This document shows, piece by piece, positions 865-63,485 of a stretch of DNA of 64,000 nucleotides. This DNA comes from Asterionella formosa (taxonomy: Eukaryota): contig NKIB01012180.1 in assembly GCA_002256025.1 (NCBI GenBank), forward strand, positions 1 through 64,000. The letters run 5' to 3'. The position numbers and the translations under genes were made by a program. The notes below the pieces were generated by a model, which saw only the letters and a list, made by a program, of their open reading frames with translations, ran no database searches and was not told the DNA's origin. Position 1 is the first letter of the stretch. Each line of letters begins with the position of its first letter.

Positions 865-921
865 AAATAGTTTGAGTCGAAACATGGGGTAAACTTTATA
901 TGACTCTCAGTTTTTAGGTGG
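865..921. mobile_element. Terminus of a TA-flanked DNA transposon (...CTCTCAGTTTTTAGGTGG|TA)
   Basis: Inverted match (17/18) to 1113-1130. Similarity continues outward (CCATGTTTCGACTCAAA vs CCATCTTTCGACTAAAA), so the true ends face the central spacer. Confidence 0.6.
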
Positions 922-1112
922 TACCAGGTACACCCAGGTACCCTGGAACCGGTAGCGGTACCAGGTAGTACTTGCGATGTAGAAATCCAGTTTTGTTCGC
1001 TTGGTACCTGGTAGTAAAACCCGTCTTTTGCCGCAACTTGTTCCAGGGAAGCAGAGTTGCTGAAACAAGTAGAGTGGAGGGATGCCCATCAGTACGTACC
1101 TGGTACCAGACA

Positions 1113-2400
1113 CCACCTAGAAACTGAGAGCCAACGCTTGGTTCCTCCATCTTTCGACTAAAATTATCGAAGCTCCTTAGCTATATATCAAAATTCAAAG
1201 CAAGTATGAACTTTATTGTAGGCAATAGCATGTGATTAATATCAAAGCCATATAATGTCACCTATTTTGACTCGTTATGATGTCTTTCAGTGCATATATT
1301 TTAATCAGTACATGAAGGATTTTCCCCCAACCTGTCAATTGTTGCTATTTCATTCATCCCTGGTCCCTGGGTTGTGCATATCAGAATACCAGTGTGTTCT
1401 TCTAATAATTTACTTAACGTGCATTACACATTGATCAATTCAACTTTTGAATCTGCTGTCAGGTATTCCCTTGCACCAAAATGATGCTTGCACTCAATCA
1501 AACAGCATTTGGTGGTGGCTGTAATAGCAGCAGCAACAACAACAAGAGGGAACAAAGGCACAACAAGCAGGAATTGTGGCTACTGGTTGCCTCACTGATT
1601 GGATTCCATAAATCTGGAAAGTAGCCCTGATGTTGCTTGTTTGTGGCGATTGTAAGTCGCCTTGGCGCCTATACCGTTGCACCATTAATCTTGAATCTGC
1701 CACAGAAATCTGCCTATCTGTTTTGTTTTCTTCCTTCAAAGCCAGCAGATTCATTTCAAGGGTCGCAACCTCCAGTGACTTTTTTACTTCCTTTGCATGT
1801 ATCACATCATTTTGCCTTTTCTTGCGTTCCTGGGTAGCACCCAGAATATCTGACGAAACTGTTAACATTTTCCTTTTTTGCTTTGATAATGAAGGCAAGT
1901 GTTCCTTTTGGCATGATTTTGTTCTTTATAGTCATGTTGCTGGCAAGTATTTCTTGTTTAACTTTCATGACTGCTTCTGTTCCTTCTTTTAATGTATCTT
2001 TCACCCTGAATTTTTTTAACTACAGCAGAAATAGTGGCACCCTTTAGTCGTCCTCCAACAGTTGGGCTCATTAAAGTAACGCAAGCTAATTGACGAGTTC
2101 CAAGCACAATCATTATTGGTTAGTATGTAAATTGCTACAACAGTGCTTAAATCATTATGCTCGTATCAAGCTACTCGTGCTCCAAGAAGATGGTTTGCTC
2201 AACAGGATCATCAGTCAGCAAGTCCTAGTCCTATTCTGCAAATCCGAGTCATGTTCAATGACTGTATCGCGTCTGCAAATTGTCATCAGTCCATAGCAGT
2301 AAACGTTTACTACACTACTTAACGGAATATTTGAAATCGATACTAAATTTCCTAAAGAAACAATTTTGGAATTGAAAGCTGGCCTATCTCACCTGGTAGG
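1113..2400 (-). mobile_element. Decayed, internally deleted DNA transposon starting CCACCTAGAAACTGAGAG
   Basis: Terminus as above. Frameshifted minus-strand coding fragments at ~1630-2070 (GGRLKGATI..., MPKGTLAFII..., LMVQRYRRQGDLQSP). Distal end not located, so the end coordinate is approximate. Confidence 0.4.
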
Positions 2401-2761
2401 CATGAAATGAATCATTGGGAGTGAGTTAAAACTGAAAATGCACACATAAAACGTGTGTTACTGGACCTTCCTGGAAATAATACCCCGATGCCCTGGGCTC
2501 AACTCGTTTGGGAATCTATAACTTCACTACCGGTAAAGGTAGGATAAACAGTAGAAATTGGGAAATCAAGCTCAGAGGCTATATTCACTACTCAGACGCC
2601 ACAAAGTAATCATCCAATATACTTAGTAAGGGTGTACCTTCTCAAAAGTATTCTTCGAAGTGCGACTCAACACTGAATGGGGCGAATAGTTATTTTTGGA
2701 AGTGAATAGTGGCCCTACTTTTCTTATAGAAATTTTAAAAATAGATTATTTTGTCTGAATT

Positions 2762-10539: not shown

Positions 10540-11688
10540 GGTTGCGGCCCCGGCTTAACCCTAGTTTGGAGAAAATATCGCTAGGGTTGTAAAAACGCCG
10601 TGTTACTATGAATTCCTATGATTCGAGTGTCCATTTGAATATTTGAATTAAACAGGAATCGGCGCCAGATTGATAGAGTTCCATTTTAAACAAACAAAAA
10701 TGATATTTAAACGTTTATACTATATCAACATTGCTGAATGTAGACATCATTCTGCTTAACGCAAAAACACATGTATAAATCAGGAGTACGCCAACATGTA
10801 CGCTCATCGTTCGTGTTTATACGTTATATTGAATCTACGCTGCTGTGTGTAGGCATACATAATAAGAATCAGTACTGTACCAGGTACCAGGTACCGAAGC
10901 ACGAGAGTACCCTGGCACCTGTGTACCGGTAGTACATTAACTCGGTTCATGACGATGGAAGACAGGATGAAGTACCGGTGTACCGGTACTGATTTTACCT
11001 GCTTGAACACAGTACATCCAATACATGTGGTTCAAGTGTGGCTGGCGTTTTTTACAAGACCGGAATTTTTCAGCCAATCTGGAGCAGGTGAGTAAATTCA
11101 TTTCAACCAATCAGAATATGTGTAGTGATGCGGCAACGTACCCTGGAGTCTTGTCGGACTGAGAGTTAAGCAGCAAAACATAACTACGCAAGATTCTAAG
11201 TCTACGAGAACGTTTTGCACATACAAATTCCGATTCCAATATTTTGGCGACTGTTGAAAAAGCCGATCGGGTCGACTTTTTGGAGGAGGATTGCTCTACA
11301 TCTGCGGGGTTTCATGAAGAATAAAGTAGATAGCCGTGTACCCTATTACGTCAGGAGTTAACTTCTGGAGAGAAACTGCAGTTATGTATCTTAGTTTTTT
11401 AGAAAAGCTTGATAACCCCTTTTTTGACTATTTTTGCGATAGTTACGGTTCGACGATACATAACTGGAGTTTCTTTCCAGAAATAAGGATACAGTATCCG
11501 AGGATAGAACATACCCCTTAATCTACCCATGACTGTATCTAAGCATGTGCAAAGTGGTCGTATTGGTGAAAGCTAATTTTATCTTTAACTATTTTATTTA
11601 CTTGTACGTATTGTGTGGATTAAGGTACATCATTGAATTATTTTGGGAAAAAACGGACCTCGCAATGTGCAACTGCGGGGCCGCAACC
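10540..11688. mobile_element. Non-autonomous TTAA-targeting DNA transposon, Kolobok-like
   Basis: Perfect 13-bp TIR GGTTGCGGCCCCG / CGGGGCCGCAACC with TTAA on both sides (10536-10539, 11689-11692). GG termini fit Kolobok rather than piggyBac (CC). No transposase ORF. Confidence 0.8.
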
Positions 11689-12800
11689 TTAAGAGACATA
11701 CCGGAAGGTCAGCGTACGACAACACACAACACTTATGAGAAGCGAAACTCCCTCTTCATCAGGAGATAATGAACATCACGATGAAGTTCCATGAAAATAC
11801 AACGATTCAATTTATCCTGGTACTAGGTACCTGGAAGCTGGTAGCTGGTAAATCATGTACCTAAGATACCTGTAGTCTACTTGTTCTCGTTCTTTATGTT
11901 TGTCGATATCATCACAGCAGCCTTCAGATGACATTTCTTAATTTTCTCGTGTCATATTTATCGAATACCTAAACAATCTGTCGTCGATGATCAAACTCAA
12001 TTGAGAATCAGAAAGAATGAATTCGTCAATCAATTATCTCGATTCTGATTGGCCTAACATGCGAACAACGCAAGGTTCTGCGAACAAGAATGACTAGCTG
12101 CGACAAATACCTGCAATGAAGAACATCTGTTCCCTGTATTTGGCATTTTCCGGGTTGTTTCATATTTTGCTTGCGTTGATGATTTGTTCTCTAAACTAAG
12201 TTCGCCAAGTAATGTTCCCTGATCACACTCCAAAAACGCATAAATGAATAAGAACAGAGTTTAAAGTTAAGTACGCGTGCTGACCACGGATTTCCTTCGA
12301 ATTTAATAGCTCATCGATTCATATACAACGAAACAAGGAATCCTTCAATTGGATTACACTAATGTGTCTGAAAGTTTCTAATGACACCGCTCAATCTCTG
12401 TATAAGATATCTACAGCAGCTGTCGGCTTACATACGAAATACGCACTTTAGGAGAATGTCTGCCACGGCAGAAGCATCGAAGATGCGTTTTGTTTGCGTG
12501 GTACCGTAACGGCCGCGTATTTATTAGTGGTACAAGGCACCCTGGTACCGGGGGGTACCTGGTACCGTCGTCTCATGCAATACACGTATTGCTCGTGAAT
12601 ACCGTCTGTTCTTCAGAGAAGTCGACTTTGATTTGGTTGTATACACCAGTATATCTAATTTCGACCAGACAATGCAAGACCCACGGTGTCGAGGTGATAC
12701 GAAAAAACATATCTCTTCATATTGTGTTGCAAACATATCCCGCACAATAAATAATAAGTCAAAGTTAGGAACGAAAAAACAACGAATACCTACTGAAATA

Positions 12801-15097: not shown

Positions 15098-15751
15098 GGT
15101 CGATGGAATGGTTTACATGGAATAAAACGGTTCACTGGTCGTACCAGGTACTCTCGACAGTGAGTATAGCGAACAATACAGTAAATAACATACCGGTATG
15201 TACCGAAAATCGCACTGATTTTTACATGACTGACTAAGAAAAGCTAAGCGAAGAACTCATCGTCGAAAATCCTACAAATTAGTTACGGTATTAACATTCT
15301 ACCGGTACCGGTACGCACAGTGATAATGATTGTAGTACTTTGTACTGTACTTGGTACCAGGTACCAGGTAGCACTACTTAGAGATTACCTGGTACCTGGT
15401 ACCAGGTACCCCTGGAAGGTCCGCAGCGCACGTTTTTTGCGCACCCAGGGTCATTAAGAAAATCTATGCTTCTTATTCGCAATTTCTAGTCGCTTTCAGC
15501 AGTTTCTGAGATAGTCGTCGTAGTACAGAGTACACCCTCCGTCCGGAAATACCAGGGTACGCCGGAGCACCAGGCCACATGTCTCCACGGGTATAGTACC
15601 TGGTACCAGGGTGGTAACAGTACATATACTGGTGTATATAATCTACAGGAATATATTTCGTGCTCAAAGCGACTGAATGCAACTCGCTTGTTTCTACAGG
15701 TAATAACTGTAGCAGACCTAACAGATGGCTCTGGCACCAAGATCATTGTGG

Positions 15752-17680: not shown

Positions 17681-18650
17681 ACGATACCAGGTAACTGGTA
17701 GTCTATATTTGTTGATACACTCACTGTATGCACGACATCTCTATTTGATATGGCCTAGTACCTATGTAGTCTAGGCCACTAGCCATAGGTTACTATTACC
17801 ATGAATGTCCCTCAATGCAAATATTTGTACTACTAGGGTTCAATGCATTAAAATATCTAATTCCAGGGTAGCTAGTATACTGCTGTATTATAAACCTCAT
17901 TGGCTAGTTTTGTTGTTATCAAACAATAATTGAGGAAGAACTGTTCTTCCTTATCTGTTGATTGTGAGCAGACCATTGTCCAGTTCAAGTAAATTGACTC
18001 CCTGAATCAATCCAACTCTCACTTTTCCTTGCCTTATTTCAGATTCAGATAATTCATCTAGATTATTGTTACATGTCATGATTACAAACTTTTTCCATTC
18101 ACCTAGCTTGCTAGCTAGCTAGCATCATCATAACTTACCTTGATTTCCTATGCCCAAGCCTCATTGCAGATAATTATTTTCATCTAAAATTTTTTGGTCA
18201 TCAGCTCTTGATTGAGATACTTTATTCATCAATTGTGAATGCTTACTTATATATTCTTCCAAACATTCCAAACATTGTATGCCAGCAGCTACAACACATC
18301 TAAATACACAAGTGCTTGTGCTAGCAGTACCTGGTACTGGTACCAGGTACCAGGGTCAGGACTGGTCGTCTCATACCGTGCTGGAATACGAGTCGACTCC
18401 CACGAGCCGACTCCATGTTTGGAGATATGTACGACATTCTGCAAGTATCACGAATGCAATGATGCTTTACACTACGCCACAATATGCAAATGCCATCGTT
18501 GGCAAGAAGATGCATACAATCACAAAGAATGGATATTCGACCATCGCGGGGCTTGCCCTCGAAGCACATCGATCAACCTAAATGCTCTTCATTGCTGTGC
18601 TTACCATTTAGATTTTTCGTCTATGAATACCTCGTGAATGGTGATAGTCG

Positions 18651-20734: not shown

Positions 20735-21711
20735 GATGTAATTGTCGTTCAGCGATAGGGAGATTGTGTCTTGGAATGTTGGGATCAATATTGCTGAACT
20801 TCAAATCAGCCAAAACCTTCCTCTCATTACCAGCAACTGAAAAGTGATTAACTCTGCCAAATTGCTTGTTTGTTTTACATGCATAATGCGGCATTTCATA
20901 CACATACATGAAACCGTGACGAAATCTAAGTCAATGTACCTACTGGTATTACATGCTGGGAACTCAGTAACCTGGTACACCCTCGTCTATAGTAGCGGTA
21001 CCTGGCACCCTTGTACCTGGTACTACAAGTCGCTCTGCCTTTGCTGAGCGATGATTTTGTTCCGACACCGGGGAGGGAGAGGAGGATGCTGAGGAAAGAC
21101 GATGATCTGGTACCTGGTACTCTGTTCGTACATACATACGGTAAATCCTCTGACGTATTATACAGACACAGACAGGCGTACAACATATTTTGCTGCCAAG
21201 GCTGCAAACGAGGATGATGAAAAAATTGTCCTATTCACCATATATGCCGGCACATACCGGTACATACATATGCATCATACATTCATGTGATAGATAGCAA
21301 AAGTGATGCTGTGTTTGTAGCGATCATGTTGCCTCACACTTTGCCCTTGTTGCATGGTGCCTTTCCACGTGGAGAATTCTTGGTTGATGCGTTGATGCTA
21401 TGCATACACATACGCATACGTAAGCTAAGCAATACTGTACTGACATAAAATCATTGTAACAGTATTACCGGCATCTATACTACATACCGGTAACTGGTAC
21501 CTACTAGCTAATCTGGAAAACGCCATTCGTTTTGTTCCGGTACCTGGTACTACCTCCTGGTATCCTCCGCCTCCGACAAATAGAAGAGCGGGATCTGTCT
21601 CTCGGATGATGCATTTTACCAGGAAGTACTCGGCAACCGATCCAGACATGGCAGTTTTCGAAATTCAATAATATTCATAACTTCCTTTGCTACTCTTTTC
21701 CTTGTTTAAGA

Positions 21712-25433: not shown

Positions 25434-26248
25434 CTTGTCTTAGTACCTGCAAGCAAGCAAGCAAGCAAGGGGTACTTCCTTTGGCGCTCAAATATGATTA
25501 TTACGGAATTGTGTACCGTATCGCGTGATTCCGCTTTAGAATATCCTACGGCAAAATGATTGCTAATGTGGAGCAAGAAGCTTCTCCAAGCTGCAGTGAA
25601 TGCGTCAAAGGAAAGAGATTCGACCCAACAGATTGGTAGGTGCTTTTGATAACCTTGGAGTAGTTTTTGCGTGACCGGCAAGTAGTCGGATACTGAAAAT
25701 GAACGTAGATCGTCACGTAGCGAGTACCAGGAAGAAGGAGGCTCAATCTTTGACTTTTCTGCTTCTCACCGATCCTTCACTACTCTACAATATCAAGAGA
25801 CACAGCAGAGCAGATTAGCCGACACGAAAGGTATGAATGATCCAACTCGACGATCGTCGCTTCTCCAATGAAAGGCCAATTTTACCCGTACACGCCAGGA
25901 CGCTACTGCTCGACTACCGGTCCCCTGGTACTGGTAGCAGGTCAATAGGAAAATCAGGCCTGTGCCGTCAAAATAAGCAGCTTTTCAAGGCCTTCACAAT
26001 TTAGTTGGTCAAATGGTGATGCATAAAGATACTGCTAGTGAAGCGTCCTTGCCTTCTGATTGGCCTGCATCAATATATCCTTGAGTTTACTATATTCATA
26101 TCATAGGTGGCTAGTTAGTATAAAATAATGACAACAATCCCAAATCTGTATACCGGGATATGTAATCCTAAAGGTCCCGGTACACATTATACATAAAAAA
26201 CAAGAATAGGGCGTGGTACATAGGAGTAGACCACCAGCAATATAGGTA

Positions 26249-26343
26249 CCAGCAAGTTGCGGTAATTTTGCTGAGCTAAAGATTTAGCTATTTTTATCCT
26301 AGATAAAGTTGTCTATTTAAGCAAAATGACCGCAGCGTGCAGG
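26249..26343. mobile_element. 95-bp MITE with TA target duplication (Tc1/mariner-type architecture)
   Basis: TA|CCAGCAAGTTGCGGTAATTTTGCT ... AGCAAAATGACCGCAGCGTGCAGG|TA: 24-bp TIR with 4 mismatches. Confidence 0.8.
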
Positions 26344-27143
26344 TACTGTACCAGGTCCCAGTAATTTACACGGATCATTTTTCTGTAGATGTAGACCGGT
26401 AGATGCTCCAAGCAATCATTACCCGACAAAAGCACATAGCATCTGTAGACTTACTACCTGTACTGCAATATCATGTAGATCCGTGTACCAGTTACTCTGA
26501 GTACCTGGTACCAGGTACCACTTAAAAACTGCAGGCTAGCATTATTTTCCTCCATCTTCCGACTGAAGCAATACAGCAATCAAACTTGATGCAAGCACTA
26601 GCTAAGTGCATGTTAGACTATGCACTCAACTCAACTAATAAGTAATCAGTTTTGAATGGGTCTTCCAAATCTCTACATCCAGGAAGATGCAACTGCACCC
26701 ATGTTTGAATAATTATAGACTCTATCATCATCACTTTTGTACCACATAATTGTAAAATCATTACAAACTCAAGGAAAACTGCAATGATGATGGTTGCCAC
26801 TATCAGCACAGTCAGTTTCATGTGATTGTTACTCTTTCTGAGCATCTACATCACACACCTCAATACCTTCTTCCTAAAATACAGCCTCTCATGAAAGAAA
26901 ATTCAAGATTCAATGAGAAATTAAATTTGTGTCAAGGTTGTGTTGCTGGCACTTTCTTGGTATGATGTTGTTTGCTTGTTATTTCATTAGCTTTCTGCCT
27001 TTTGCTCATTTCAAAGACTCACACAAGTAATCTAGCTTGCTGATCAGATACTAAAATATTTATGACAGCTCCAATATAATGAGGTGAGAACCAAGATGAT
27101 TGGCCTGTGTGCTTTGCCATTTTTATCAATTGTGCAACTCTAA

Positions 27144-29370: not shown

Positions 29371-31813
29371 TTATTAAAAAAATAGTAGCGATCCACACAG
29401 ATACACATTTCGGAGCAACAAAAAAGCGTTGCTGAGCAACATATAACTCGGATTGTGGGGATACAAAAAATTGGGCCGAACAACATATCTTCCCATTTTG
29501 TATCTCTTTTAAGACCTGCCCTAGCTAATACTGATAAAAAACATGTTCACGCTTCGTTTTTCTCTAAGAAAAGCCTCATTTGTATTTGATTCAAGTTTCC
29601 ATCTAAAATATCAAGACCGTTTTGGATGTTTGCAAACATTATTTGATCCAATCATGGGTATCTGGCCTGTTGTTGCAGAAGACCATTCATTAAATTACGA
29701 GTACATGCAGCAGATTGACTGAGACCAAATAATGCATTTACCACATTTGTAATGTTCACCAATCTTGCAGCTTCCACCGATGAGTCTACTTGCAACTGTC
29801 CTCTCCTGCCAGCCAATGGAGCAATCAATTGTCATATCAGATGAGCATCTGACATTTCGCTCCTCAGCAACCAGTTTTCGGGCTGATGCATGGCCTGTTG
29901 TCCACTAGCAAACAGATAATGTTTTGTTCGAAAAAGAATCGATTTGAATTCATCTCTAGCAAATCATGGTCCAACCAATTTAAATCCAACCCAACCAGGA
30001 AAAAAGAATTTACAGGCATTTCAAAATCATCAGTAAATGCCACAACACCTATGATTTCTTCGTCTTACATTATTTTCAAAATCAAAATTAGATGGATCGC
30101 AAGGATAGTTGTAGCTAGTTCGACCCTTCAGGTTTTTAAAAACCTGCTTTAAGAAATGATTTTTCATAGTTTTCAACATTGTTTCCAGAAGGCAAAGTTC
30201 CATCAGGGAGTAAAAATTGCGAACCAACTACTAAGGCCTTCTTCCAATTGATCAGAGCAAGCTGAGCCATCTTCAAGAGAATTCAAACAGCACCAATTAA
30301 AGTAGAAATACTCTTCATTCCAGTGCCAGCAGGAGATTTCGTATTGAATTTGAGATTCAAAAACATAAATGCTTTGATAATTACAAAAGTAGCAGTCTGC
30401 CTGCCTTACAGTCTTTTAACGCCAAATCAAAAGCTGAAACTCTATCTGGGAGAAAATTGTTCACCTCCTCTCTACTACACAGGTCTTCAAACTGGCCCCT
30501 TCCCCACAGCAGAGAATTCAAATATGCAATGCTTCCTTGCACATCTGGATCGCCGTGATAAAGTATAGATTTTTTGCTCGGAGTTTTTAATCATAATTGT
30601 AGCTAGGCTGTCTAGACATCTTGTCCATGACAGCAACAGTTCCTTGCAGCTCCTTCTGCCATGATGCAGAGGGCGGAGCAAGAGCATTCTTTGCTGATTC
30701 TAACGGTTCTTGGGAAAACCTAAATGTTGTCAACCACCCATTGACTGTGATGTAGGACGACAAAATATATAGAAAAATGCACAATTTTAATCAATCATTT
30801 TGATTTCTATTCGGAAATAGTTAATTTTCGCCCAAATTTGATGCTTTGTTGTTGTCTCCTCATCAAACCATATATACTTGTAGTACATATGAGTACTAAA
30901 ATAGTCTACGGTATTAATGTAAATAAATGTATGACAGTTCTATGCATACCAGGTAGTATTGTAGATTGTAGATACATACATAAGCATATAACTTGGCATT
31001 ACAAGTGGTACCAGGTACTCCTGGTAACAAAAGAATGAGTACATGATCACTGGGCTACCAAAATTGTATGTCCTTGTCCTTGTATCTTAGGATCATCGTG
31101 AATACATGAAAAGGGGAAGTCATACATATTTCGAAAACGCCTTTTTGTGCATTTGCGATATTTTTTTTGGCCATCAAAACAAAGTGGAGATGCATGAGAA
31201 GCCATGTTTCTTTGAACCATCAATAATCTCAACATCCTTATAAAGTTGGTTATAGCGGTAGAACAAAGGCAACTTGTATTCAATTATTGATTGCACAACC
31301 ATGAAAGTGGCAATTATGGGAAGGAAGAAAATGATGGTCTGCTTGTTTTGATGATCAGAACCATGAAATATCTGATGGTGTGGTCAATGTACACGTAGCA
31401 AGCAACCATAGAAAGTATATGGAATGATAGTTATTCTATTGAAAACTTAACCCAATTCACACTTAGCTAATATCCAATTCTCCAGCTGACATGAGCAATG
31501 CTGTCATTGAGAACTGATCCAAGAACAACATCAACAAAAAATTATTACACATACTTCCATATAAGGAAGTAATTACCACACCAAATTTTTTTATGTGCAT
31601 GGGACCAACAAGCATGGTACAGGGTTTGCTACGACAAACTGTGACTACAGTGTCACTAAAAAACTCCGTTGACTTACAAATGATGTTGTGCTCCCTACAG
31701 ATAAATGAAGGAAGTAAATGGCATTCCATTATCTAGTGTTGCTTTCACAAACTGTGTGATTTAAATGTAGCTTGATTCTAAGAATATACAATTTGGAGTG
31801 CATTGTTAGGAGC

Positions 31814-35241: not shown

Positions 35242-35802
35242 CTGGTTTTCATCCAACATACAAACTATCTAAAATACGTTTTCAATGTTAACAGAAAGGG
35301 CAATGTAGTGGCGAAAAGAGCGCCAATAGCTAGTTTGTGAATTGCCTAGGTATTACCCTACTTGGGAGGAGTCTACCTACTCGTAATCTTGTGTACTCAG
35401 CTTGGGAGGCCCTCGCAGGTCGACCTTATCACAGCGCCGGGAGCGCCACTCATTCAGTCAACCTACTTGCACCTCCCAAGCCTCGAACACAAGAATACTC
35501 GCAGGCAGTCTCCACCCTCAGTCGTGTATTACCTTCAGTAGCTGCGATACCGCGAAGTACCGGTAGGATAGAAGCACGGTCGACCTGCGCAGTGATCGAA
35601 CCATCGACAATTGCTCACCGGTACCAGGTACCTGGTACCCTGGTACCTGGTTAACAGGTAGTAAGACCTTGTCCCCTGGTACCTGGTGGTACCTGGTACC
35701 ACCATGTACCGGTAGACTGCTTTAAGTTCTTTTGCATTTCTTGTCATGCATACTAAAAAAATTGGTGACCGAAATTGTTTTGCTCCGTGTTCGAGGAGGA
35801 CG

Positions 35803-36981: not shown

Positions 36982-36986
36982 CAACA

Positions 36987-38378: not shown

Positions 38379-41300
38379 CACGTTGCTCAAATCAGCGGAA
38401 GAAGGAAGCGATATCGCAGCAACTGCTATGATGTGGCATTGGGAAGGAATCGATGTGACCAAAAGAACTCAAGCCTTGTAATGTCGTTGGGAATGAACAA
38501 TAAATTGAATTGCATCAAATATGTTGCTGAAGCTAATTGTTTAATACCGGTACATATTGACTACCGCGGTAAAGCTACCAGTTACCAAGTACCTGGTACC
38601 TGTCACCGGCAATCATAAAATGGTCCTGAGCGACACCCAATGATAATCCTCCGTATGATAGCACCTGTTCTGCTCTTGTAACCATCAGAAGCCCCATTTT
38701 TCGTATATACAGAAGTACTCAATTTATAAAGCAGTGACTACATAGAATTTCCCGGAATATTTCAAGACTTCGTTCCTGCTCATAGTACTTGAAATGGCTA
38801 GCTCTCTCCAAAATAGGCATGCAAATATATATGCATATCATTACATATCAATCAACCTCCTCAATACATTGATCGTCACTCCTTCAGATTTCGACAAATT
38901 CTTCATCTTCTTCCAGTCAAAGGAGACCAGTCAGGGAGGGCTTCCCTTCCTTGCCAAGGCTGCTTGAACATCACTGTCATCAACAAGAACAACAACAGAT
39001 TCAACCAGAAGAGGGAGAAGAGGAGGATGATGAAAGATGAAGATGACACTGGTGCTGACGAGTTTGCCAGCAGCAATGAGGACAGCAGGATGGAAGCATG
39101 CAGAGTTGGCTGGGGTCAACAATTCAGGGTAAATGAGATCCTCTCATTGCTGGACTCTAGTGACAACAAATAACCTTGAATCAATTCGTTCTAAGATAAA
39201 AATGAAAGTAGTGCTGATGAAAATTCATGATAAATAAATTCTATGAATTACATGGCATATCTATTGTTAGCATTCCTATGCAAACAGGGCATATACACTG
39301 AAGCAATTTGGTTCTTACCAACTTTGCTAGCACGAAAGTTGTAGAGCAATACAATGATCATTTGGAGTATGAACTTTCTCTCACCTTTTCTTTGTAACAA
39401 AATTTTCTTTTGATTCTTGGAAATGATCCCTGAAGATATCGCATTCCCCATTCCGACAGCTGTTGGATTAAGGTGGCTTGGCGTTTTACACCAAATCTTT
39501 GTTGAGGATTACCTTTTGCTTCACAACCACTTTTTTACCTGTATCCCTGTTAACTGTTTCAATTTGATCTGGTGGAATTATTGTAACCACGCGTTGATAT
39601 AGACATATGATAACAATGAAACATAAATGATAATGACACAACAATCATGTCATAAAGGCTTAAGGAACAATAGTACAATCATTCAAATCGTCGTCATTGC
39701 TTGAGTGGTGTTGAAGACAAAGCGAAAACGGAGCAAGTGATGATGATGATGACAACAAGATCAATGCATTTGCTGGTAGATTATCGTAAAAGGGAAATTT
39801 AACTAAAGGAACAAAAAGAAAACAATACATATCATATTTTAACATTTTAACATGCATAGTCGAAAAAGGGTTCTATTTTATATATGGAATCATTTATTAC
39901 ACATATTAGATGATATATTGAAATTATATGAACTTAAAGCAATGGAGATTGTATGACAAAGTGAGCGCATCCTAATAGTTACAACTAACTTACGAATGAG
40001 TAAACTTTGGGTGGCATTACCCAGCTCCCATCAACCACATGACATTATTCTGGTATAAATGAGCCAGGCAATATAGAATTTTTTGAAGACCGATAGTTTG
40101 AATCCAATAATCAATGGTTGTAAACATATTGTCAATGAATGTGAGGTAGACATCAATGGGTAATTCTGCACATGTATGATCTGACAAATGCAAACAGCAT
40201 TTGTAGACTAGTTCATTTGATTATTCCATTCGAACAAAAATAATAACTAGCATAGCAACTCACAATAAGAATATAGAAATAAAAAAATGAATGTCTCTAC
40301 TGTCTAGAGCCTATTTTTTGTCGAACAATAGATCAATCTAGGAAAGTTAATACTTTATCAAATATATTTTAAGTGAATTCGAAAAGGAATCTTTGCATGT
40401 ATGCGCAAATTTCCTCTGATTTAAATATTTCAAACATTATTATTTAATTCATACTACTAATGATCACATAAATGTTTCCAGTTCCAGGGAATTTCGGCAA
40501 CGCTAAGCCATCCTTTAATTTTGTCTAGGGTTTCAGATACAGCAACCTTAAAATTTCATTTCGTATTTTTAGCATGACAGCCAGAACAACGGTACCTGAT
40601 CCTGTATATATAGTAATGTAAATGATGAGTGGTTAATTGAAAAATGAGCATCATGAGAATGATTGAAATGTAGGTTGCTTTTATCAATAAAAAATCAACA
40701 TAATGTTTGGAGCAACCAAAGTATCATGATATAGAATGTAATCGGAAATGTCAAATTCAAAATTAAAAGATTTTTTTGGGGATAAAGTTGAAATGAGCAA
40801 TATAAGTTTCTGAGAGTTTTCCTTTGTAGTAACTACAAAGTAATTGTTTTTCCATAAAACAATCAAAGAAGGAAATAGCACAAAAAAGAGAAGAAACCCT
40901 GAACCCAATTGAAGATTTAGTTTGTTTTATAGAGAAAATGATCTGTTTGTTGGAACCATGCTGCACATAACTGTGTTAATTACTAGTATAGAGTAGATGA
41001 TATGGCTTTTGAGCCATGAACATAGCTGTAGCTTGATAATAGAATACAGGCAGCAGAAGTCTTTCCACCCACGGTTTGAACTTAACAAGCAAGAACAACA
41101 ACCCTGATCATTCCATTCTGTATGTGATCACCAGGGTACTCCTCTATTACCTCCTCTATTGAATAAGTAATTATTGCTACTAAATGCTGAAACATAGCCT
41201 GTTATACAAACTCTGAGAAGAAAGATTACAAACTGAGTTAGTACAAGAAAATCATTGCTTAGTGGCAATAATGTTAACATCATCATTTACAAAACCTTGA

Positions 41301-44486: not shown

Positions 44487-45931
44487 TATTTTATTTCACA
44501 ACCAGGCAGTATGAATGAATAATGTAAAGCAATGGCTGGAAGGCGACGATTGAGGAATTACCGGTAGGAAAATCCAATCATTCATTTACAATTTTCCGCC
44601 AAGCGCAATAGATATTGAGCAAGAACCAACATCAAACAACGTACCGGCACATCATGATGAGGCCAGCAAGTCGTGCCTGGTACCTGGTACCTGTGACCGG
44701 AAATAAGATATGTATTCAGATACCAGCAGGGTACAAGTTACCTGGTAGGTAGAGTTGACCTGACCTGTTCGACACAATCTTGGGGCAAAAACTCGTGCGC
44801 CCACCATTTTCTTCAAAACGGCAATATAAAAGTGCGGAATCGATAGCTGACCCTTCGTACTATCTAAAACTTTTTTCCATTTAAAAAAGGTTGCATATTT
44901 TTAAAGTTATGGTCGTTTCCCAAAAAAAAAGTCCATTTTCGGGAATACCAGAATCCTTATCAATTCGCCAAGTACGACGGGTAGGCGCGCCACGGGTGAA
45001 ATGGAAACAATTAAAAACACGGTAGATGTACTAGCTAAATATTTAAAATGGTAGAATCACGTGCAAAATATGTAGTCTTGTGTGCGTGAACTCCTCTTTA
45101 CACTAGTTTAGTAGTTTAAACTGATGCTATGGGGGTTACAGTAGTCCTCTCCTCTCTACAGACACCAACAGATGCTTTAACAGCATTTATCAATCCCTCT
45201 TTGTCCAATTTCATAACATTCACTGGTCGAGGGCCAGTGAAATACCTCAACATGAATGTCCTGGAGCTGCTTGTTTGTCCACACCATAGCAATCAGATCC
45301 TCATTTTTTATGGCTGCATCAATCAGTGAAAAAATATCAAGCAAAATTGAAAGCTTTTTCTGATCCAATGATGCTACAGCTGCCAACTTCTTTCCCTCCT
45401 TACCCTGGGTTTCAACTTTATTTGCAATTGACCTTTCTTCCTTTGCCCAGTCATTTTCTCCACAAATCTCACCAACAATAGACATGACTTCATTCATCTT
45501 TTTAACTCTTTTCATTTGGCGTTATGAATTCAATACCCTTGAGTAGCTGGCCACATTGCCCTTTAACATTGTCTGCAAATAAAAAATATCGTACTTATAA
45601 GATCAGGGGTATCATACGATAACTGGCACAGAATTTTTCTGTGCATGATACATGTTTTGTTATATGTATGATAAATGCATACTATGAAAGTGAACAGGCT
45701 AAGCGTACTCATAATAACCAAACCACCATATAATTATCAAAACATTATCCTATGATGTATATTCTTTTATCAAATACCTATCCTGCCTTATTTGATGGTA
45801 ACTCTAATCGAAATAGCAGTTAAAAATAGGTTGAAATGAATTGTAATTTTACTGTTATATCACGAAATCATTTTTATGCTTCTACATTTTGTGTGGTTAA
45901 ACAGCCAATATTCCCCTTTTCTATTCTTGTC

Positions 45932-47470: not shown

Positions 47471-47550
47471 TATGACTACGTGATATTGTATACCCTCAAT
47501 CACCTTTAGATACCGGTATACCAAAGTCACTCCCTACTAACCCTATTCCT

Positions 47551-47815
47551 ATCATGGGCATGATTCAAATTCAAATCAATAGTACATGTAGTACGTTTAC
47601 ATAAAAATATCTGTGCAACATACCGGTATATATGTGTCACTATGATGGACATGATTTGAATTCAAATCAATCGTATGCATACTGGTACGTACGTTTACAT
47701 GCAAAAAAATTTGTGCTACATATATACCGGTAGGTATCCCGATGATGGGCATGATTAAAATTCAAATCAGTTGTGTACATACGTTTACATACAGAAATAT
47801 CTGTGCAACATATTG
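47551..47815. repeat. Three tandem ~92-99-bp copies
   Basis: ATGG(G/A)CATGATT..AATTCAAATCA..TACGTTTACAT..TGTGC(A/T)ACATA at ~47553, 47645, 47744. Confidence 0.9.
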
Positions 47816-49592
47816 GTACTACCAGGGTACCAGGTAGTACAATACTAGATGGTGATACAATAGACAGTAGTACCTGGTACCAGTACTCACACACAAGTAG
47901 ACTCAAACATGAATATGCACATACCGGTATGAATATATATTATGTCTTCTAAGCTATAGATTACTACAGCAGCTATGTACACACACCCATGTACGACTGT
48001 CCTACTCATGCAACAGGCATTCAGATTGAGTGGTTGTTGATGTTTGCAGCCAGTGATGGTATACATATAAAAATACATGTATCGATATATATACATACAA
48101 TATTCTACATGACGACAAATATTATTCATATTAGATGATAAATCAAATTTATATGATCATATGATCGCCATTATAAGATGCATCACACGAATTAGATGTT
48201 TTCTATTTGCAGACGATATTGATTCTCCATTTTGCAATGTTCTCCTTTGCTCCAACACCGATTGCATCAGAAATTTCAAAAGCAATACCTTGAATCTCAT
48301 CCCTCTCTGAAAATGTTGTTAAAGATCTGGGTGTAGGACAAGGGCGCTGCATTTCTATGTTTGGAATTCCCATCAAATTTTTTTTTGGGTTGCCAACCTG
48401 CAGTCATTTCCTTGCATCATACAATGTTGATCTCAGAACTCTTTGAGTGCGCATCATGATAATTGTATCATTCCCTCCCATGTTGTTCAATTCTTCTAAC
48501 AGTGCTTTGATGTTACCAGGCAAGTTCCAGTTCTTGTAAATATCGCAAAGATTCTTCATCAAAACCAGAGATTGACTCACTAATTTTTCAACATCAACCA
48601 TCATTGTTGTTCTTGCTTTTGCTGTTACTGTCATTGGTTTCTGGTGGGACAAATCAGAATGATCCTTTGTAGGTCGTCTGCGCCATAAAGGAATCCATCT
48701 TACAGAACAAGTAAACAAGGAAATGAGCGCATTGAAATAACTCTGGACGTTTGTTGCTAATCACTGGCATTGTTACTCACTGTCATATGTCACCAGACCA
48801 TTTCAGCCTTGCCTGTTCTTGCCTTATCTTTGGCCTCCCAGACATGGTTTGATTGTTGGAATTGAATGTGCAGTGAGCGAAATGAGTAAGTAATGCAAAC
48901 TAATGAAGATGATAAACATTCATCCACCAGTGCGCAAAAATCTGAGTTTGCAATGAACATAAAACATCTTGTAGTACTGCTATACTAGTGTACCTTTTTA
49001 CGACGGATTCGGATAGTTCGCGCCAGCAAGCATTAGCAGGATTCGAAATCATTCATAATTATGAAAAAATATTATAGATTGAATTAACTAAAAATAATAG
49101 AAGATCCTACGGAAGTTCTTCGGGGGCTGTACTACAAGGTGAAATCCAAAATTGGTCAGGGTGCCGGTTTGGTCAACTCTACCTGGTCCCGGAGTACGAG
49201 GTACCAGGACCAGGTACAGTAACCTTCGCGGTACGCTGTTGTGGGGTGCATGTAGTTCGAATCCAAGAAGTCATGCGGCCGGTGCTTGTGTCTCCACGAC
49301 ACGACTACTGGTACAGGAGCCACAATGGCTACCGGTACATGGAGAGTATTTCTTGTACCAGGAGGTACTTCCAAGCAACAGAACCAGGTGATACGCACAG
49401 GCAGTATTACTGGTACCTGGTACCAGTAGTCCGGTACCTGTTAGTAAACCTTGTACCAGGTACAAGTATACCTGTATAATAGCAGTACGTAGACTATGGT
49501 ATATTATTAGGATATGTTGCAATCAGCTTTATATCAGGGACCACACGGAGCTATGGGAGACCGCACATCATAAATCACTTTTTCACTCCACC

Positions 49593-51301: not shown

Positions 51302-51361
51302 GAAATAGTGCAAGGGGTGGCATTTATGGAATTACAATGGTGCTTATTCCCTTTAACGGTC

Positions 51362-52084: not shown

Positions 52085-52812
52085 TGCGACTTCGAAGTGG
52101 AACGGCCGGGGTATGACTGATGATCTGTTTCTTTTTCTTTATTCCCGGCGTTGTTTCACGCACAGGCACGTCACGACCAAAGTCGACCCTTTATACGTAT
52201 ATCCCGGTAGATATTCCGGTATTTATAGTGCTAAGATGGACTACGGATACCGTACACACACAAAAAACCAGTACCGGGGTATTTCTTCATTTACATGTAA
52301 TCATCAAGTTTACCGGTACCGGTAGGCATGTATTTTGCTTCCTTACAATTTAGCCATGGTACCGGTAAGTACTTTATGAACGCAGCCAGTATTCAAAATT
52401 TCGACGTAGATGTACCTGGTACGCGTGTTCACGGACAAGGGGGAGTAGGAAAACAACTAACGGTACCGGTACCTGTTACCGGTACGATCGAACCGCGTTG
52501 TACTTATAATCCCGCCGTAAGCCCATCAACCAGCTTGGCATCAAGAAGATGCGACTTCCACTGCTATCATGTACTCCGTACACCAGTAATTTTGTACATG
52601 ATATACTACTATAAACCTCCTGAAAAATATCCCTTGATGTACCGGTAGTCTACCACCACATACATTCAATATAGCCACAATCTATGAAGTAAGTACACCA
52701 CGCCCGGGGGTAATAATGCACTGTAATTAATGCCTTCATAGCTAATTATCTTCGGTTGCGTGTATGTAGTCGATAATTTCATTCAATTCAAACCATGGGA
52801 GCAAAATCTGCA

Positions 52813-54374: not shown

Positions 54375-55130
54375 GTTGACGCTACTGTGGACAAGATTGG
54401 AAAGTCGGCTGGAAATTATTGTTGGGGCCTGCGAGACTTCTGACCTATGAACATATGATATTATTTCCCTTTGTCAGTGCTAGTCTAGTTCGGATAATAG
54501 TCTACTTGGTAGTTGTGAATAGAAACGTGAGGAGTAGAAAGCTGTACTAGTTGCCGTCACAGAAGAAAGAATGCGTGACAGCAGCAACGATGACGAGGCG
54601 CGCAAGGGGGTATTTCAAAATTCCACAACTTTGTTGTGCATCCCGGTATGATCATTTATATCGCCTTGCGTGGGAATAAACATCAGGTACGTACCGGTAG
54701 GCAGGTAGACTACCATGGTACCTGGAAGTATACGTGAATACGGATGTTGGGGGTTGGTAGAAGTACTGCCGTTAGATATGTACCCGGTAGTTCGACCCTG
54801 TTCCAACCAAGGTGCCAGCAATACATATTATGAACCGGTGTAGTCCTACTAGTCCTACCAGGGAGTACCAGTACCAGTACCGGCACCTGGCACCCCCTTT
54901 GTACCAGGTACCTACCTGGTTCGAGAACTCTACGTAGTAAACCAAGAAGAAGAATTCAGATATTCGCGCAGTCTGCGCACATGGTAATCTGCTCACAGCA
55001 GCAGAAGCATCGTGTTGGCCGTATGTAAAATACCACGTGGGTACTGGCAAAATCTCAAACGCGCCGCGTCGTTGGCGCACCACAACACGACGTTTCTTGT
55101 CTGTTATTCGCAACAACCAACTCTTTGACA

Positions 55131-55621
55131 ATGATCGGCAAGTTCTTTTCACCCGCGTTCTATGTAGGACAGTATGACAAGACTGTTGCCTCATTGGGAG
55201 CATATTATAGACCCATGTTCCGCGCTGGAAGGTGAGCCTGCCCTTTGTTGTTGCTGGATTGCGCATCAATCGAGTGAATCTAGTGGTCTCCGGGTCGCTT
55301 TGCCGACAGGATAAAAAAATGGTTTTACTTTCCCCTTATTTTACATCAATTTTGTTCGACCTTTCATGTGCAATTATGTTTATTTTGCATGGGAGGAGGG
55401 GCTTGATTTCTCCATGATAATATATCTGTTTCTCACAAATTTTCCATTTATGCCTACATAGCATCACTCCACTCTGGCATGCCATGATCCTTACTTCCGT
55501 TGTCATGTACTCTTGCACTTATTATGGACGTAAGGGAAAGATTGTTCAAGATCAACGCAAAATCGAGAAGAAGGCTTTGGAGGAGTACTATGAGAAGCAT
55601 GGAGGACCTGCGCACCATTAA
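55131..55621 (+). CDS. 86-aa single-TM protein resembling mitochondrial ATP synthase subunit f, 2 exons
   Basis: Exons 55131-55231 and 55462-55621 give MIGKFF...YYRPMFRAGSITPLWHAMILTSVVMYSCTYY...AHH. YY..GS..PLWH-TM-Y parallels fungal Atp17. Confidence 0.7.
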
Positions 55622-56796
55622 ACAACCTGTCGTCAGGTTTTGATAACTCTATCGAATGATTAGCTAAATTGGTTTGACGTTCAAAGATCTGTAAGGCTGT
55701 TTTGGAAAATATTTGTTATCGATGTCGCAACTTTTTCAACTAAAAGGCAATACGGAGCCTGCTCCTCAGGAAACAGAAGAGTGTCCACAGAATCGGATGC
55801 ATGTCCCATGTCGTTTCGCTTTGTTTCCGACATTGTGTTGAGATTCCGACTGTTTGTTTTCGTATCACTTGTGTGAGGTTCTCTCGAAACTGTTTTTTCT
55901 TGGCAGCAGACTTACGAGTCTTGTCATCAGTGTTACTCGTCTCAAGGCATCGCATCACAACCATCAACTTGACTACCGGTACCGGCACCCGTACTATGTA
56001 GGTACCGACCGGTGCTGCTACGTAGTTAGTATGGTAGACGGGTGATCGTGAATGAGCCGAAAATCAAATCCCGTCATGGTAAGATCAGAAAACACCCAAA
56101 GTGTTCTTTTGCACACGTTTGGCACTGTGCACGACCCATCAGTACCGGGTACGAAAATCCGAAAAATTCCAGCGAGAGGACATCAGAGTCTACATTCCGG
56201 TACCCCTGGCACTACACACCGCGCAAATGTATTACATACCAGGTTCGCAGCTGGACTTCACACAGATCGAATAGGTAACCGATAGGCTACCCGGTATTGG
56301 TGCCAGGTACCAGTACCATACCGGTACCAGTACTGGTACGTACGGTAACATTGTTATATTGTATGAATAACAGTAGCGGTGGCCTACTTTTAGGATATGT
56401 ACAGCTATAGTAAGTACAGTGGTCCAACAAAATGGCCTTCCTGCTCATCCTTTACTTATTTATGTAATGTACCAGGGTAAACTAGCAAAACCCGTACCGG
56501 TAAGTTGTTGTTTTACAATGTTCGTCGATTCTTTCATTCTTGGCTACCGGTATGATTATTACAAAAACGAGAGGGATCAACAGAAAAGCTCCTTAAGTCG
56601 TTCCGTGCGTTTCTGCCGTTTCTTTCATTCCCATTTGTTTGTTTTTACATTACTCATCTGGGCAAAGGGAATCAAACGAGCGAGTACTATAGTACTTACC
56701 ATAATCAGCACGAATCATATTTTTCTGAAACTAGAATTGCATCCAGTTTGTTCTGATAGAAAAGCAAACGCAGAAATACCGAAAAGAAGAACGAAT

Positions 56797-58577: not shown

Positions 58578-58636
58578 ACAAAGACAATGGTAGTTATTTT
58601 GCGTTGTTGGAAGGAAGGTCTGCTATTACATTTCAG

Positions 58637-59815: not shown

Positions 59816-60224
59816 CGTCGCAATATCTCATGTATGTTTGTTGTTTGAAGAATGATCTCTTTTACATATTTGCATCGAAACATCCAAACTACCGGTATTA
59901 CCATCGTATTCCGATACCGGTTGTATATACCGGGTAGTCATGAAATAATGGGAACTGCTCCTAACAAGTTCAAGGAGGACCGTTCCATCATCTCATACAT
60001 GTGCATGATATTTACGGGTGGTGTACCGGTGTTAGCAGTAAATTTTGAGTGATTGCTACGTGGTTAGTATAGTACCGGTATTCCTTACATACCGGTATAT
60101 ATATTTAATACCGGTAGGGAGATAATATATAACCGGTACATATAATATATGTACAGTAGTATATAAAAACATGAGGGTGGTATATTCGACCAGTAACAGG
60201 TACGGTAATCTGGTAGTCCCCTCT

Positions 60225-60294
60225 GGAAGGTCCAGTAATCGAGATATTTAGCTTAACCTTTTCCGTAGAAAAAACGTGTCTTAACGAACCTTCC
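60225..60294. mobile_element. 70-bp mini TIR element with target duplication
   Basis: CCTCT|GGAAGGTCCAGTAA ... TTAACGAACCTTCC|TCTGG; CCTCTGG is repeated across both junctions. Related ends occur at 2447-2471 and 15414-15438. Confidence 0.7.
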
Positions 60295-60349
60295 TCTGGT
60301 GTTCTTATCTACAGATATTACCCTGGTACCTGGTAACGGTACCTACTCG

Positions 60350-63100
60350 AGGTACAGCTGTTCAACAATATCACTTATTAGCCATAACGATGTGAACAAA
60401 GCAACAACTATAGTATGAAACAAATGCCAGTGCATACCGATAGTATGTATGCATTTTCAAACCAACAGCAAAGATATTATATTGCCTTTTACAAAGGCTG
60501 GGTGACTATGAAACCATAGTCCACATTAAGGAGTGAATCAGCAGCCTTTCCCACTCATCCAACAAGCCAAGGCATGCATTGATATAGATGCAAAACCAGC
60601 TGAAAATGGCTGATGGGAGGCAAATAATTCTGATCGTGCTTCCTTGCTGCTGGGATCAGTCGTGGCTGTGGAAACTGTCGAGGAGAGTACCACAACAGCC
60701 CATGGCCAAGAAAGAGAGCAAAGATATAAAATTTTCAGACAACATTCTTGCTGTTCCAAACATGGAGTCAACAGTTAGTAGTACACAGCTGGAAATGAGC
60801 ACTCTCCTCCCAATAGAAAAATTTCCACCTGGATTGATGAGACCTCAACAAAATTCACTCTGCTTGCTACTCCAAAGAGAGTGCAAACGCTTGCTCGTAG
60901 TTTCACTAGACATAGACTAGCAACAAATGATAGAGCTGGAAGGTTGCTTTGTTACTAGCCAACCACGCAATGCATCCAGGCCTTGATGAGACTGATCTCT
61001 TTCAGTGGTTGCATGTATCCAACAAAAACTGTGAAGAAATCAAGTTTTAGAATGCCAATACCATCAATTAATCTCAATTTAAGGATTCAATTGAACATGC
61101 ACCTATTCAGAAATACACCTTATACTACCCTACATACACACATGTGATACATCTGTGCATAACCACACATAACACACAGCAACCTGGTGTTCTCAACAAC
61201 AAAGTGATATGACCTATGGTAAATTTTTGCCACATAGATTAAACAGGAAATATTGTTTGATTCACTTCTTGAAGGAACAAAGAAGGCAAGTATGCTGAAA
61301 AGTGACTGCTTCAATCACCATAGACACAAACTAAGATGCACACTTCCTTCACAGCTTCAGTGAAAAGGTGAAAGAAGATCCCAAGCACTACAACAAATCA
61401 CTATCTTAGCACTTCACAGAGAACATTTGCACTCCAACGCCTCTAGACATGAGGTGGTTGAGAATGTGTTCCAGCATGTTACCACAAATATACCCACTTG
61501 ACAGCGCCAGAAGTCACTACATAGTAGCTATTTTAGGTTCTTATCAGGAGGTTTTCTTTTTTCCGGGAAAAAACCAGACTAATCACGCAAGGAAGCGCCA
61601 TGATGCGGACTGCCCTACTATCACATATACAGTAGTTTTAAGGCGCTATACAAGTAATATTAAATATACCAACAGAGACATCAATTACTCATGATAGCAA
61701 TTTCCAAGAACACACGCCTTGCTTGCCTTGAAACAAGGTTTTTCCACAGATTGAAAATTGGATAGTAGTTTAGTGGTCGTGTTATCTGAATCTCAGCAGC
61801 TACATTGGGCAATTCCTTCCAAATGAACACGCACACGATCATTTTTTATTTTCTATGTTACTTTCTTTCCTTTTTCTTTACACATCCTGGGCATGCCCAG
61901 GAGGGATGCATTTACCTCATCGCGCAAACAATACAAACATGAAAAAATGGGTCTAGGTCTCTCAGAGATCAATCGATAGAGGGCACCTTTGAATGATTTG
62001 GCACATGCGGGTACTACCCGAAATGGAGACTAAAAGAAAGAAGGGGGGAGCGGTTTAAACACCACTGCCTGCTCCTGCTGACGAAATTAGCACACTACTT
62101 GGCTATTGGAAATGGCAACAATTGGACCCAATTATATGGCGTTGTACTATCCAAAAAATAATTCCATGTAGTCCAAGAACCGTGTCAATTCGGACTCTGA
62201 AAAATGGATGGCGACCAGTTAAGGCTTCTTGACTTACATAATTTTTTTGAGGCATGTATCAGGCTCATTGCAATCCCTTCGGGGATTGGGGTGGATTTAG
62301 TGCTGGTAACTCTTTTGAACATGAGTGCACAAACTGGAGGGCTGAAAAACTTAACTCAAATCATGTTTTCTACTGAAATCTTATACATAGCGAATATAAG
62401 CGAGGTCATTTTCAAACAATTCTTGGCGTTACCGGCACTCCCCAGCAGCACGATTAAAATCATGTCTTTCACATGGAGCACTTGTTGTGCGCAGATAGGA
62501 TTCAGATGCTGGGGCACTTACATCACGTTTTGGCCTCAAAACTGTAGATTTTTTACGCTGACCACGCTTTTTAAAATTGAATGTAGGTCGGACCTGTGTC
62601 ATGAAGTCATAAGGCATCAAATTGGCATGTGTCAGTTGAAATTGAGGAATTTTTTGATTGCTGATTGTTCTTGTTGACAGCAACATCCACGAACCCTCCT
62701 ATTTCTTGAATCTCTGACAGACATCTGTGTTTGAGATGCTGAGGGGAGAGCATCATTGTTATAACTACAATCGTTGAGATATGAAAGGGAAAGGTTTTTC
62801 CAAGCCAGCATTGTTGGTGATGGACAACTGGCAATTCTCAGGGAGAATACCAGCAAGAAAGGAAAGCATTGAGGAGGAGGCCTCATCTTCTTCAATCATG
62901 TAGAAGTGCAATCGAATGACGGATTGGTTGCCATTACTCCTATGTAAACAACGATTATGGTAGTCGAGCTATGCATGGGGTTCTCGATATTTCTGCTGCT
63001 GATAATTATAATATCAAATAATATTTTACTATGGAAAAAGATGGAGGAGCTAAATTAATTTGTATCGATTAAGTACAAGGGTTCTCCTAGACGTTCCAAG
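60350..63100. other. Decayed repeat-like block with broken ORFs
   Basis: 60350-61450 is strongly CpG-poor and CpA/TpG-rich. Only short interrupted ORFs; no family recognised. Confidence 0.4.
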
Positions 63101-63485
63101 TCATTGGGACATGCCAGAGCAAAAGATCCTATGTGCTGCTACCAGGGCACCAGGTAGTTTGTTGTTAGTACCTGAAAACGACTTCTTCTACCGGTAGTAT
63201 TGGGTTCCCACAAAACCACCCCAGTGTACTGGTCACTGGTCACACTCCATGAATTTTGCAGAGTTCCTCATCATGGGCCTTCGTTCTATCATGATACCGG
63301 TACTGGTACAAGGTACGTTGTGCCGCCCTGGCGCCAATTATATTTGATCATATGTAGTCACTATCACTTTTGTCGGTCCACTCAACAACAGGTCCAGACA
63401 CACTATTATAGTGTTGCTGTCATCATATTATCATCATAGCATCGCACAAATATCATCGATTACTTCAGTTCGTAAAAGTCAGAAT

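Follow-up and report, generated by a model that had tools for sequence, protein, structure and literature searches.

TA-flanked CCGG and CCWGG palindromes upstream of genes in the diatom Asterionella formosa: probable scars of transposon excision

A 64-kb stretch of nuclear DNA from the diatom Asterionella formosa (contig NKIB01012180.1, positions 1 to 64,000; below, the window) carries many copies of two short palindromes, TACCGGTA (TA-CCGG-TA, the 6-bp type) and TACCWGGTA (TA-CCWGG-TA with W standing for A or T, the 7-bp type), most densely just upstream of genes. On balance, these units are probably the excision scars of a Tc1/mariner-type element, left near promoters, extended into arrays partly by replication slippage, and subject to neutral decay. 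The observations that speak for this origin are the enrichment of the palindromes, their placement, the TA that bounds them, insertions and deletions (indels) of single units at plain TA, and the co-occurrence of a family of TA-flanked MITEs (miniature inverted-repeat transposable elements) whose ends fit the scars.

Abundance, form and placement of the palindromes

Expected counts were the mean over 100 dinucleotide-preserving shuffles. TACCGGTA occurs 40 times in the 64 kb against 0.31 expected (3 in the richest shuffle), and TACCWGGTA occurs 38 times against 0.18 expected (1 in the richest shuffle); the count for GGTACC is 65. The palindromes are confirmed as real and far beyond chance, and the examples cited in a preliminary description of this DNA are all present where it placed them, including TACCATGGTA, whose single occurrence in the window is at 54711-54720. 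Among the 16 palindromes of the form TA-NN-N'N'-TA, TACCGGTA is the sole enriched one; TACATGTA, with 4 copies against 1.17 expected, shows no clear enrichment. TACWGTA, which had been named as a further kind of the motif, is present 13 times but is only mildly enriched (2.3-fold over the 5.72 expected). The middle base of the 7-bp type is A in 17 cases, T in 21, and C and G in 2 each (W 38, S 4).

A TA precedes 38 of the 56 CCWGGTA and 40 of the 59 CCGGTA, with the same numbers on the 3' side. The TA is therefore duplicated around the insert, as in an excision footprint, and sites that vary read either TA or TA-CCGG-TA. Complete units number 78, of which 61 are solitary, the remainder forming seven doublets and one triplet with a common TA. 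TACCGGTA in particular is mostly solitary: 30 of 40 copies have neither GG before nor CC after, and their flanks are near background. A target-site logo drawn around solitary units showed only weak biases.

Derivatives with one mismatch are about as numerous as intact units, which fits a balance between gain and neutral decay. For TACCGGTA there are 57 such derivatives (11.1 expected) beside the 40 intact copies, and the commonest are the CpG-transition forms TACTGGTA (9) and TACCAGTA (6).

Placement was assessed by counting TACCGGTA plus TACCWGGTA over the 22 open reading frames (ORFs) of the window, used as rough, ORF-based gene models with no annotation; where clusters are described, hits are complete units or GGTACC on its own. 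The 400 bp upstream of ORF starts hold 42 units in 8,407 bp (5.0 per kb), coding sequence 2 units in 20,256 bp (about 0.1 per kb), the 200-bp 3' flanks 0 units in 2,392 bp, and the remaining DNA 34 units in 32,945 bp. A hit lies within 1 kb upstream of 15 of 16 well-supported ORFs. The earlier statements that the motifs sit 5' of nearly every gene and are rare in coding sequence and in 3' gaps both hold. Going upstream from the ATG, hits per 100-bp bin number 9, 19, 31, 17, 2, 13, 5, 3, 6 and 2, so that they peak 100-400 bp from the ATG with the highest bin at 200-300 bp. The palindromes are over-represented and positionally biased in promoters, with 0 to 17 hits per promoter. The claim that upstream DNA is built from stacked palindromes went further than this: the enrichment is strong, but recognisable units occupy 6.35% of the 400 bp before ORF starts, about 59% in the richest 100-bp window and less elsewhere, and most of them stand alone. 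Some units lie upstream of the ends of RNA contigs (49200-49463, 56199-56554) and others inside RNA contigs (55974-56332, 59890-60116), contigs of a kind that cannot show transcription starts.

Strain differences and a candidate parent element

Contigs of four public runs, two of DNA (X2, X7) and two of RNA (X10, X8), were aligned to positions 44000-63999, and the findings on indels rest on the 12 best-supported of 50. Six of these 12 are exactly one unit long, and five of the six, all within 20 kb, are differences between a plain TA and a solitary TACCGGTA:

52198..52201: plain TA in the window; TACCGGTA in X2 and X8 (TACCGG put in behind 52199, +6 bp); absent from X7
52739..52740: plain TA in the window; TACCGGTA in X8 (behind 52738); absent from X2; the cleanest case of a new site
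55995..55996: plain TA in the window; TACCGGTA in X2 and X10 (behind 55994); absent from X7 and X8
56495..56502: solitary TACCGGTA in the window; plain TA (-6 bp at 56494) in X2 and X7
59890..59897: solitary TACCGGTA in the window and in X7; X2, X10 and X8 have plain TA
44676..44689: (CCTGGTA)2 array in the window; three units in one X2 contig (CCTGGTA behind 44675); a length change of the slippage type

The palindromes are still being gained or lost between natural populations. Each of the six unit indels occurs in at least one and at most three of the four runs, and the sets of runs differ, which marks the indels as segregating variants. Because there is no repeat at those sites to slip on, the five differences between TA and TACCGGTA cannot be slippage; the motifs are accordingly not all fixed, and their variation is not only slippage. 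At most other motif sites in 44000-63999 no difference appears among the 12 listed of the 50 indels. The preliminary description had predicted insertions of CCWGGTA or CCGGTA at TA. For CCGGTA, differences of this size at TA were seen five times, as gains or losses; the 7-bp type varied, among the indels listed, only as a change in array length. The description had also said that motifs fixed between strains, or variation by slippage only, would speak against excision. Among the 12 indels listed, six sites vary by one unit, and five of these have only a plain TA or one unit standing by itself.

A scan for inverted repeats starting just after TACC and ending just before GGTA located one candidate parent element:

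26247..26345 (+): 95-bp MITE (26249-26343) between two TAs; arms CCAGCAAGTTGCGGTAATTTTGCT (left) and AGCAAAATGACCGCAGCGTGCAGG (right)

Its terminal inverted repeats match at 20 of 24 arm positions and, as befits a MITE, it is small and has no ORF. The ends read CCA...AGG, from which the predicted scars are TA-CC-A-GG-TA or TA-CCGG-TA, so that the bases of the scars equal the terminal 2-3 bases of a resident TA-flanked element, albeit of one family with one copy in the window. A metagenome scan with a 17-nt pattern taken from the MITE arms gave 120 loci, 117 of them chance matches. The real copies lie in three contigs, L009 (87% identical), L035 (85% identical) and L079 (interrupted), making this a repeated family, and in all three the homology stops at the terminal CC and GG. 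Each of the three MITE-bearing contigs also holds a GGTACC(W) array, of 6 units in L009, 3 in L035 and 15 in L079; among the other 117 loci, L041 has two complete units and L077 four bare GGTACC, and there are no other such cases. The proposed family of TA-duplicating transposons with CCW termini has a fitting candidate in this MITE, present in one copy in 64 kb.

A general scan of the window for inverted repeats flanked by TA revealed no CC-ended element besides the MITE; it otherwise matched the arrays and a TTAA-flanked element described below. Scans of viral contigs with the MITE arm and with the array gave 0 matches each. At the right-hand TA of the MITE starts TACTGTA, a scar sequence of the Sleeping Beauty type (26344-26350), followed by CCAGG. 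In L079, GGTACC units at 455-480 stand inside the MITE copy, as if it had been struck after insertion.

In being shorter than 100 bp, non-coding, flanked by TA in the window copy, bounded by terminal inverted repeats, present in multiple copies and close to genes, the element resembles Stowaway-like MITEs. It differs from them in its apparently low copy number here and in that its mobility is putative. Its ends also appear unlike the plant Stowaway consensus. The inverted repeats of Mos1, a classical mariner, begin CCAGG and TCAGG.

Origin of the units

The proposed mechanism is as follows. An element ending CC(W)...(W)GG, of which the 95-bp MITE would be one member, would insert at TA and duplicate it. 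On excision, a staggered cut would leave the last 2-3 bases of the element on each flank. End joining could then write TA-CC+GG-TA (6 bp gained), by trimming of the terminal base or following a 2-nt stagger. Alternatively, the terminal A of CCA could pair with the T of the opposite CCT overhang to give TA-CC-W-GG-TA (7 bp gained), in which the element's orientation would decide the letter. Insertions would fall mainly 100-400 bp upstream of start codons, presumably as the DNA is accessible there. Units would decay by point mutation, and where they touch, the 6/7-bp repeat would grow and shrink by replication slippage also; scars would in this way seed arrays and slippage would extend them. The transposase, the geometry of the cut, the preference for open chromatin and the neutrality of the units are all parts of the model that we infer. 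As described in PMC7827188, Sleeping Beauty and mariner nick 3 nt inside the element, which leaves 3-nt 3' overhangs on the donor flanks, and end joining produces a footprint between TAs. TACCAAGGTA, the product expected from full retention of the MITE ends, has 0 copies in the window; the product with a 1-nt overlap is the common one.

At least six unit indels were seen beside 274 rows of single-base differences, and a unit is taken to be lost by any change in about 9 bp. A rough calculation from these numbers, made with no fitted model, suggests an equilibrium of about 2 units per kb against about 1.2 observed, in which case neutral accumulation could suffice.

To our knowledge, excision footprints have been seen as rare, scattered, single events or by-products. 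The units share with those of Tc1/mariner elements (Sleeping Beauty; Tc1, with TACATGTA) the duplicated TA and the constant 2-5 element-end bases between its copies, the middle A/T being as in Sleeping Beauty. They differ in that scars here outnumber the candidate parent 78 to 1, reach 5 per kb upstream of genes and fuse into arrays. In a comparison of rice species, 94 excisions were recorded with mostly complex footprints, perfect ones (with exactly two copies of the target-site duplication) making up 8 of the 94 (PMC4423477). Those excisions, as that paper presents them, were likewise found as indels between close genomes, and mariner-type non-autonomous elements were prominent among them. 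In the window, unlike in rice, one stereotyped scar recurs many times in 64 kb. Full-text literature searches found no description of the present palindrome arrays, or of scars of this kind, in diatoms, and the words mariner, MITE, Tc1, footprint, promoter and upstream are all absent from the text of a 2025 preprint on diatom transposons (10.1101/2025.10.24.684338).

Several findings weigh against excision scars. The 7-bp type behaves unlike the 6-bp type. TACCWGGTA stands in a GGTACC context in 30 of 38 cases, and its flanks outside arrays have G at -1 in 62%, compared with 26% for all TAs, an unexplained preference for G-TA-C. Adjacent 7-bp units have the same middle letter in 8 cases and different letters in 4 in the window, and in L009, L035 and L079 the count is 9 to 0 (17 to 4 overall), so that the A/T middle base, earlier described as irregular, is mostly alike in neighbours. 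A simple scar model predicts none of these features of the 7-bp type. The one 7-bp polymorphism seen, at 44675, is an array-length change from 2 to 3 units and fits slippage. The unit indels are unpolarised and could be gains or losses alike, and in 44000-63999, a stretch that excludes the MITE at 26247, no site has the element in one strain and a scar in another. TA stands at 4 of the 8 MITE flanks over the four copies (both sides in the window copy), and the 64 kb hold no second copy of the MITE or of its ends beside the 78 units. Pfam found no transposase domain in 97 of 113 candidate leftover ORFs; the 16 ORFs outside that scan lie at 20929-21668, 49078-49522, 52117-52650, 54713-55174 and 55744-56282, largely over arrays. 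Outside diatoms, TACCGGTA is identical to a Phytophthora promoter motif that has been read as a factor-binding site (PMC3597505), and homogeneous (GGTACCW)n arrays in many bacteria indicate that the unit can grow by slippage alone.

Weighing both sides, we hold an origin by excision to be moderately probable: the strain indels came out as it predicts and the candidate element fits, although no transposase was found in the ORFs scanned, one MITE copy stands beside 78 units, and the case falls short of proof. What would be new is the density and placement of Tc1/mariner scars. The idea that repeated cycles of insertion and excision polymerised the arrays is weakened, since the same-letter neighbours and the 44675 variant point to slippage within them.

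Some other process, such as a different class of mobile element or a repair pathway, might write CCGG or CCWGG between duplicated TAs, with the MITE as a bystander that shares its target region. This would accommodate the ratio of scars to MITE copies, the differing behaviour of the two types with the preference of the 7-bp type for G-TA-C, and the lack of a site with both element and scar in the strain comparison. A CCGGTA also lies within about 20 nt of both 52199 and 55994, and templated repair could have copied it. However, the 52738 site has no CCGGTA within 30 nt that could have served as template, Tc1/mariner excision is known to leave just such a signature, a constant insert with a duplicated TA around it (PMC7827188), and the MITE ends fit exactly. 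We consider such a process unlikely.

Slightly less likely still is a working promoter palindrome, the site of a dimeric factor, kept by selection and with an origin unrelated to transposons. The perfect symmetry of the units, their presence before 15 of 16 ORFs and their concentration 100-400 bp from the ATG are what such a site would show. There is also precedent: in Phytophthora infestans, TACCGGTA (M94) and its sibling TACATGTA (M93, with 4,150 promoter occurrences) are over-represented promoter palindromes that PMC3597505 reads as factor-binding sites. TACATGTA is the Tc1 footprint of Caenorhabditis elegans, and in the account given by PMC3520976 a footprint origin was set aside for Phytophthora, in favour of a binding site, because the motif is abundant and conserved. 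The window and Phytophthora are alike in having the identical 8-mer (M94) in the promoters of two stramenopiles and the TA-NN-N'N'-TA form; they are unlike in that no strain indel evidence is given for M93 (motif-1) or M94, and TACATGTA is not clearly enriched in the window. Neither M93 nor M94 is among the six motifs tested in PMC3597505. Moreover, selection on point mutations cannot add an identical 6 bp at unrelated plain TAs across strains, the number of hits per promoter is widely variable (0 to 17), units also lie inside two transposons, and derivatives one step away are as frequent as intact units. Scars may nonetheless have acquired a function later.

Plain 6/7-bp microsatellites, owing both their origin and their variation to replication slippage only, would explain the like-lettered 7-bp neighbours, the change from 2 to 3 units at 44675 and the homogeneous bacterial arrays, but are very improbable, given that 61 of 78 units are solitary, that five of the six unit indels lie at a plain TA or single unit with no repeat to slip, and that 14 of the 19 period-6/7 rows reported by Tandem Repeats Finder are of the palindrome sequence type, which argues against a general microsatellite habit. 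The bacterial arrays came from a scan of bacterial and archaeal genomes with the 20-nt array GGTACCWGGTACCWGGTACC, which matched at least 110 bacterial loci in many phyla (L121-L230), with no diatom DNA among the matches listed. They resemble the arrays of the window in their 7-bp unit, tandem arrangement and intergenic location, and differ in being homogeneous heptamer tandems that adjoin other heptamer blocks, for example (CCTGATA)n and (CGGGAGT)n. Neighbouring units there are the same in 224 cases and different in 34, among the matches listed. Low-GC loci with arrays that are labelled 'Chitinophaga' have dense bacterial ORFs. These arrays are probably an unrelated slippage phenomenon.

If the units are excision scars, a transposon measurably reshapes regulatory DNA genome-wide, and one stereotyped scar makes up about 6% of the promoter-proximal DNA here. 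The Phytophthora question would also be reopened, as the same class of palindrome was, in the argument of PMC3520976, judged to be no footprint on abundance and conservation alone. A further step, which seems doubtful to us at present, is that scars at accessible TAs have been co-opted as working promoter or 5' untranslated region elements in the diatom lineage, that the abundant Phytophthora 'binding sites' TACCGGTA and TACATGTA likewise began as scars, and that excision is a standing source of promoter sequence in stramenopiles.

Motif clusters, other elements and genes of the window

The clusters of hits are distributed as follows, strands being those of the ORFs named:

920..1111: cluster of 9 hits
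10878..10990: cluster of 6 hits inside a TTAA-flanked inverted-repeat element (10537-11691)
12500..12570: cluster of 5 hits, 100-170 bp 5' of ORF 12672-13358 (+)
15142..15414: the largest cluster, with 15 hits, 45-310 bp 5' of ORF 14129-15097 (-), with the sole TA-sharing triplet at 15386
18328..18355: cluster of 4 hits, about 300 bp 5' of ORF 18651-19820 (+)
20997..21550: two clusters (5 and 4 hits) between the divergently oriented ORF 19889-20734 (-) and VDE ORF 21712-22938 (+)
26502..26523: cluster of 4 hits, 157 bp from the MITE
30947..31018: cluster of 3 hits
33303..33357: cluster of 4 hits, 520-570 bp 5' of ORF 31814-32779 (-)
35558..35716: the densest cluster, with 12 hits, 39-188 bp 5' of the PP2C ORF 35746-36981 (+)
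38545..38604: cluster of 3 hits, upstream of ORF 36987-38378 (-)
44559..44748: cluster of 5 hits, 5' of ORF 43734-44486 (-)
47511..47931: 8 hits inside a high-copy inverted-repeat element (45565-48220)
49200..49463: cluster of 7 hits, 250-505 bp upstream of ORF 49705-50628 (+)
52311..52486: cluster of 10 hits, 227-393 bp 5' of ORF 51362-52084 (-)
54692..54916: scattered units, the one TACCATGGTA among them, 5' of ORF 53001-54374 (-)
55974..56554: three clusters (3, 4 and 2 hits) 5' of ORF 57150-58577 (+), partly under RNA contigs
60073..60347: two clusters (3 and 3 hits), 258-523 bp 5' of ORF 58637-59815 (-)

Two of these groups lie in larger mobile-looking sequences. The 1.15-kb element at 10537-11691 has terminal inverted repeats and TTAA on both sides, a target duplication of the piggyBac-like kind. 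The element at 45565-48220 is non-coding, reaches about 80-fold depth in run X2 and contains internal tandem repeats of 36 bp and about 100 bp; TACCGGTA at 47511..47931 belongs to the latter repeat and was therefore copied along with it. Contigs of X2 and X7 join 45482 to 48216, one X2 joint having TTAGGGTTAGG between the two sides, and some haplotypes may lack this element.

The window has a G+C content of 41.7% and long, mostly unbroken ORFs. Pfam matches were obtained for 11 of the 15 largest: three PP2C, CREG/PNPOx, VDE lipocalin, protein kinase, glyoxalase, Paf67, class-V aminotransferase, MINDY and MeaB. The named relatives of the VDE protein are all diatoms, with the best non-identical match 84% identical, and the DNA of the window is also present in freshwater and lake metagenome and metatranscriptome runs from 13 studies. 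Rfam and tRNA scans of the window gave no matches. The three PP2C phosphatase ORFs lie at 2762-4132, 35746-36981 and 36987-38378, the last two being convergent neighbours with a 6-bp gap. An ORF fragment at 43390-43725 (-), in the gene region 42571-44486, matches the C-5 cytosine DNA methylase family (PF00145, E 2.5e-05). RNA contigs of two runs show short introns of 74-230 bp (GT..AG, or CT..AC on the minus strand) at 49731-49832, 50599-50691, 52929-53004, 55229-55460 and 56828-57002.

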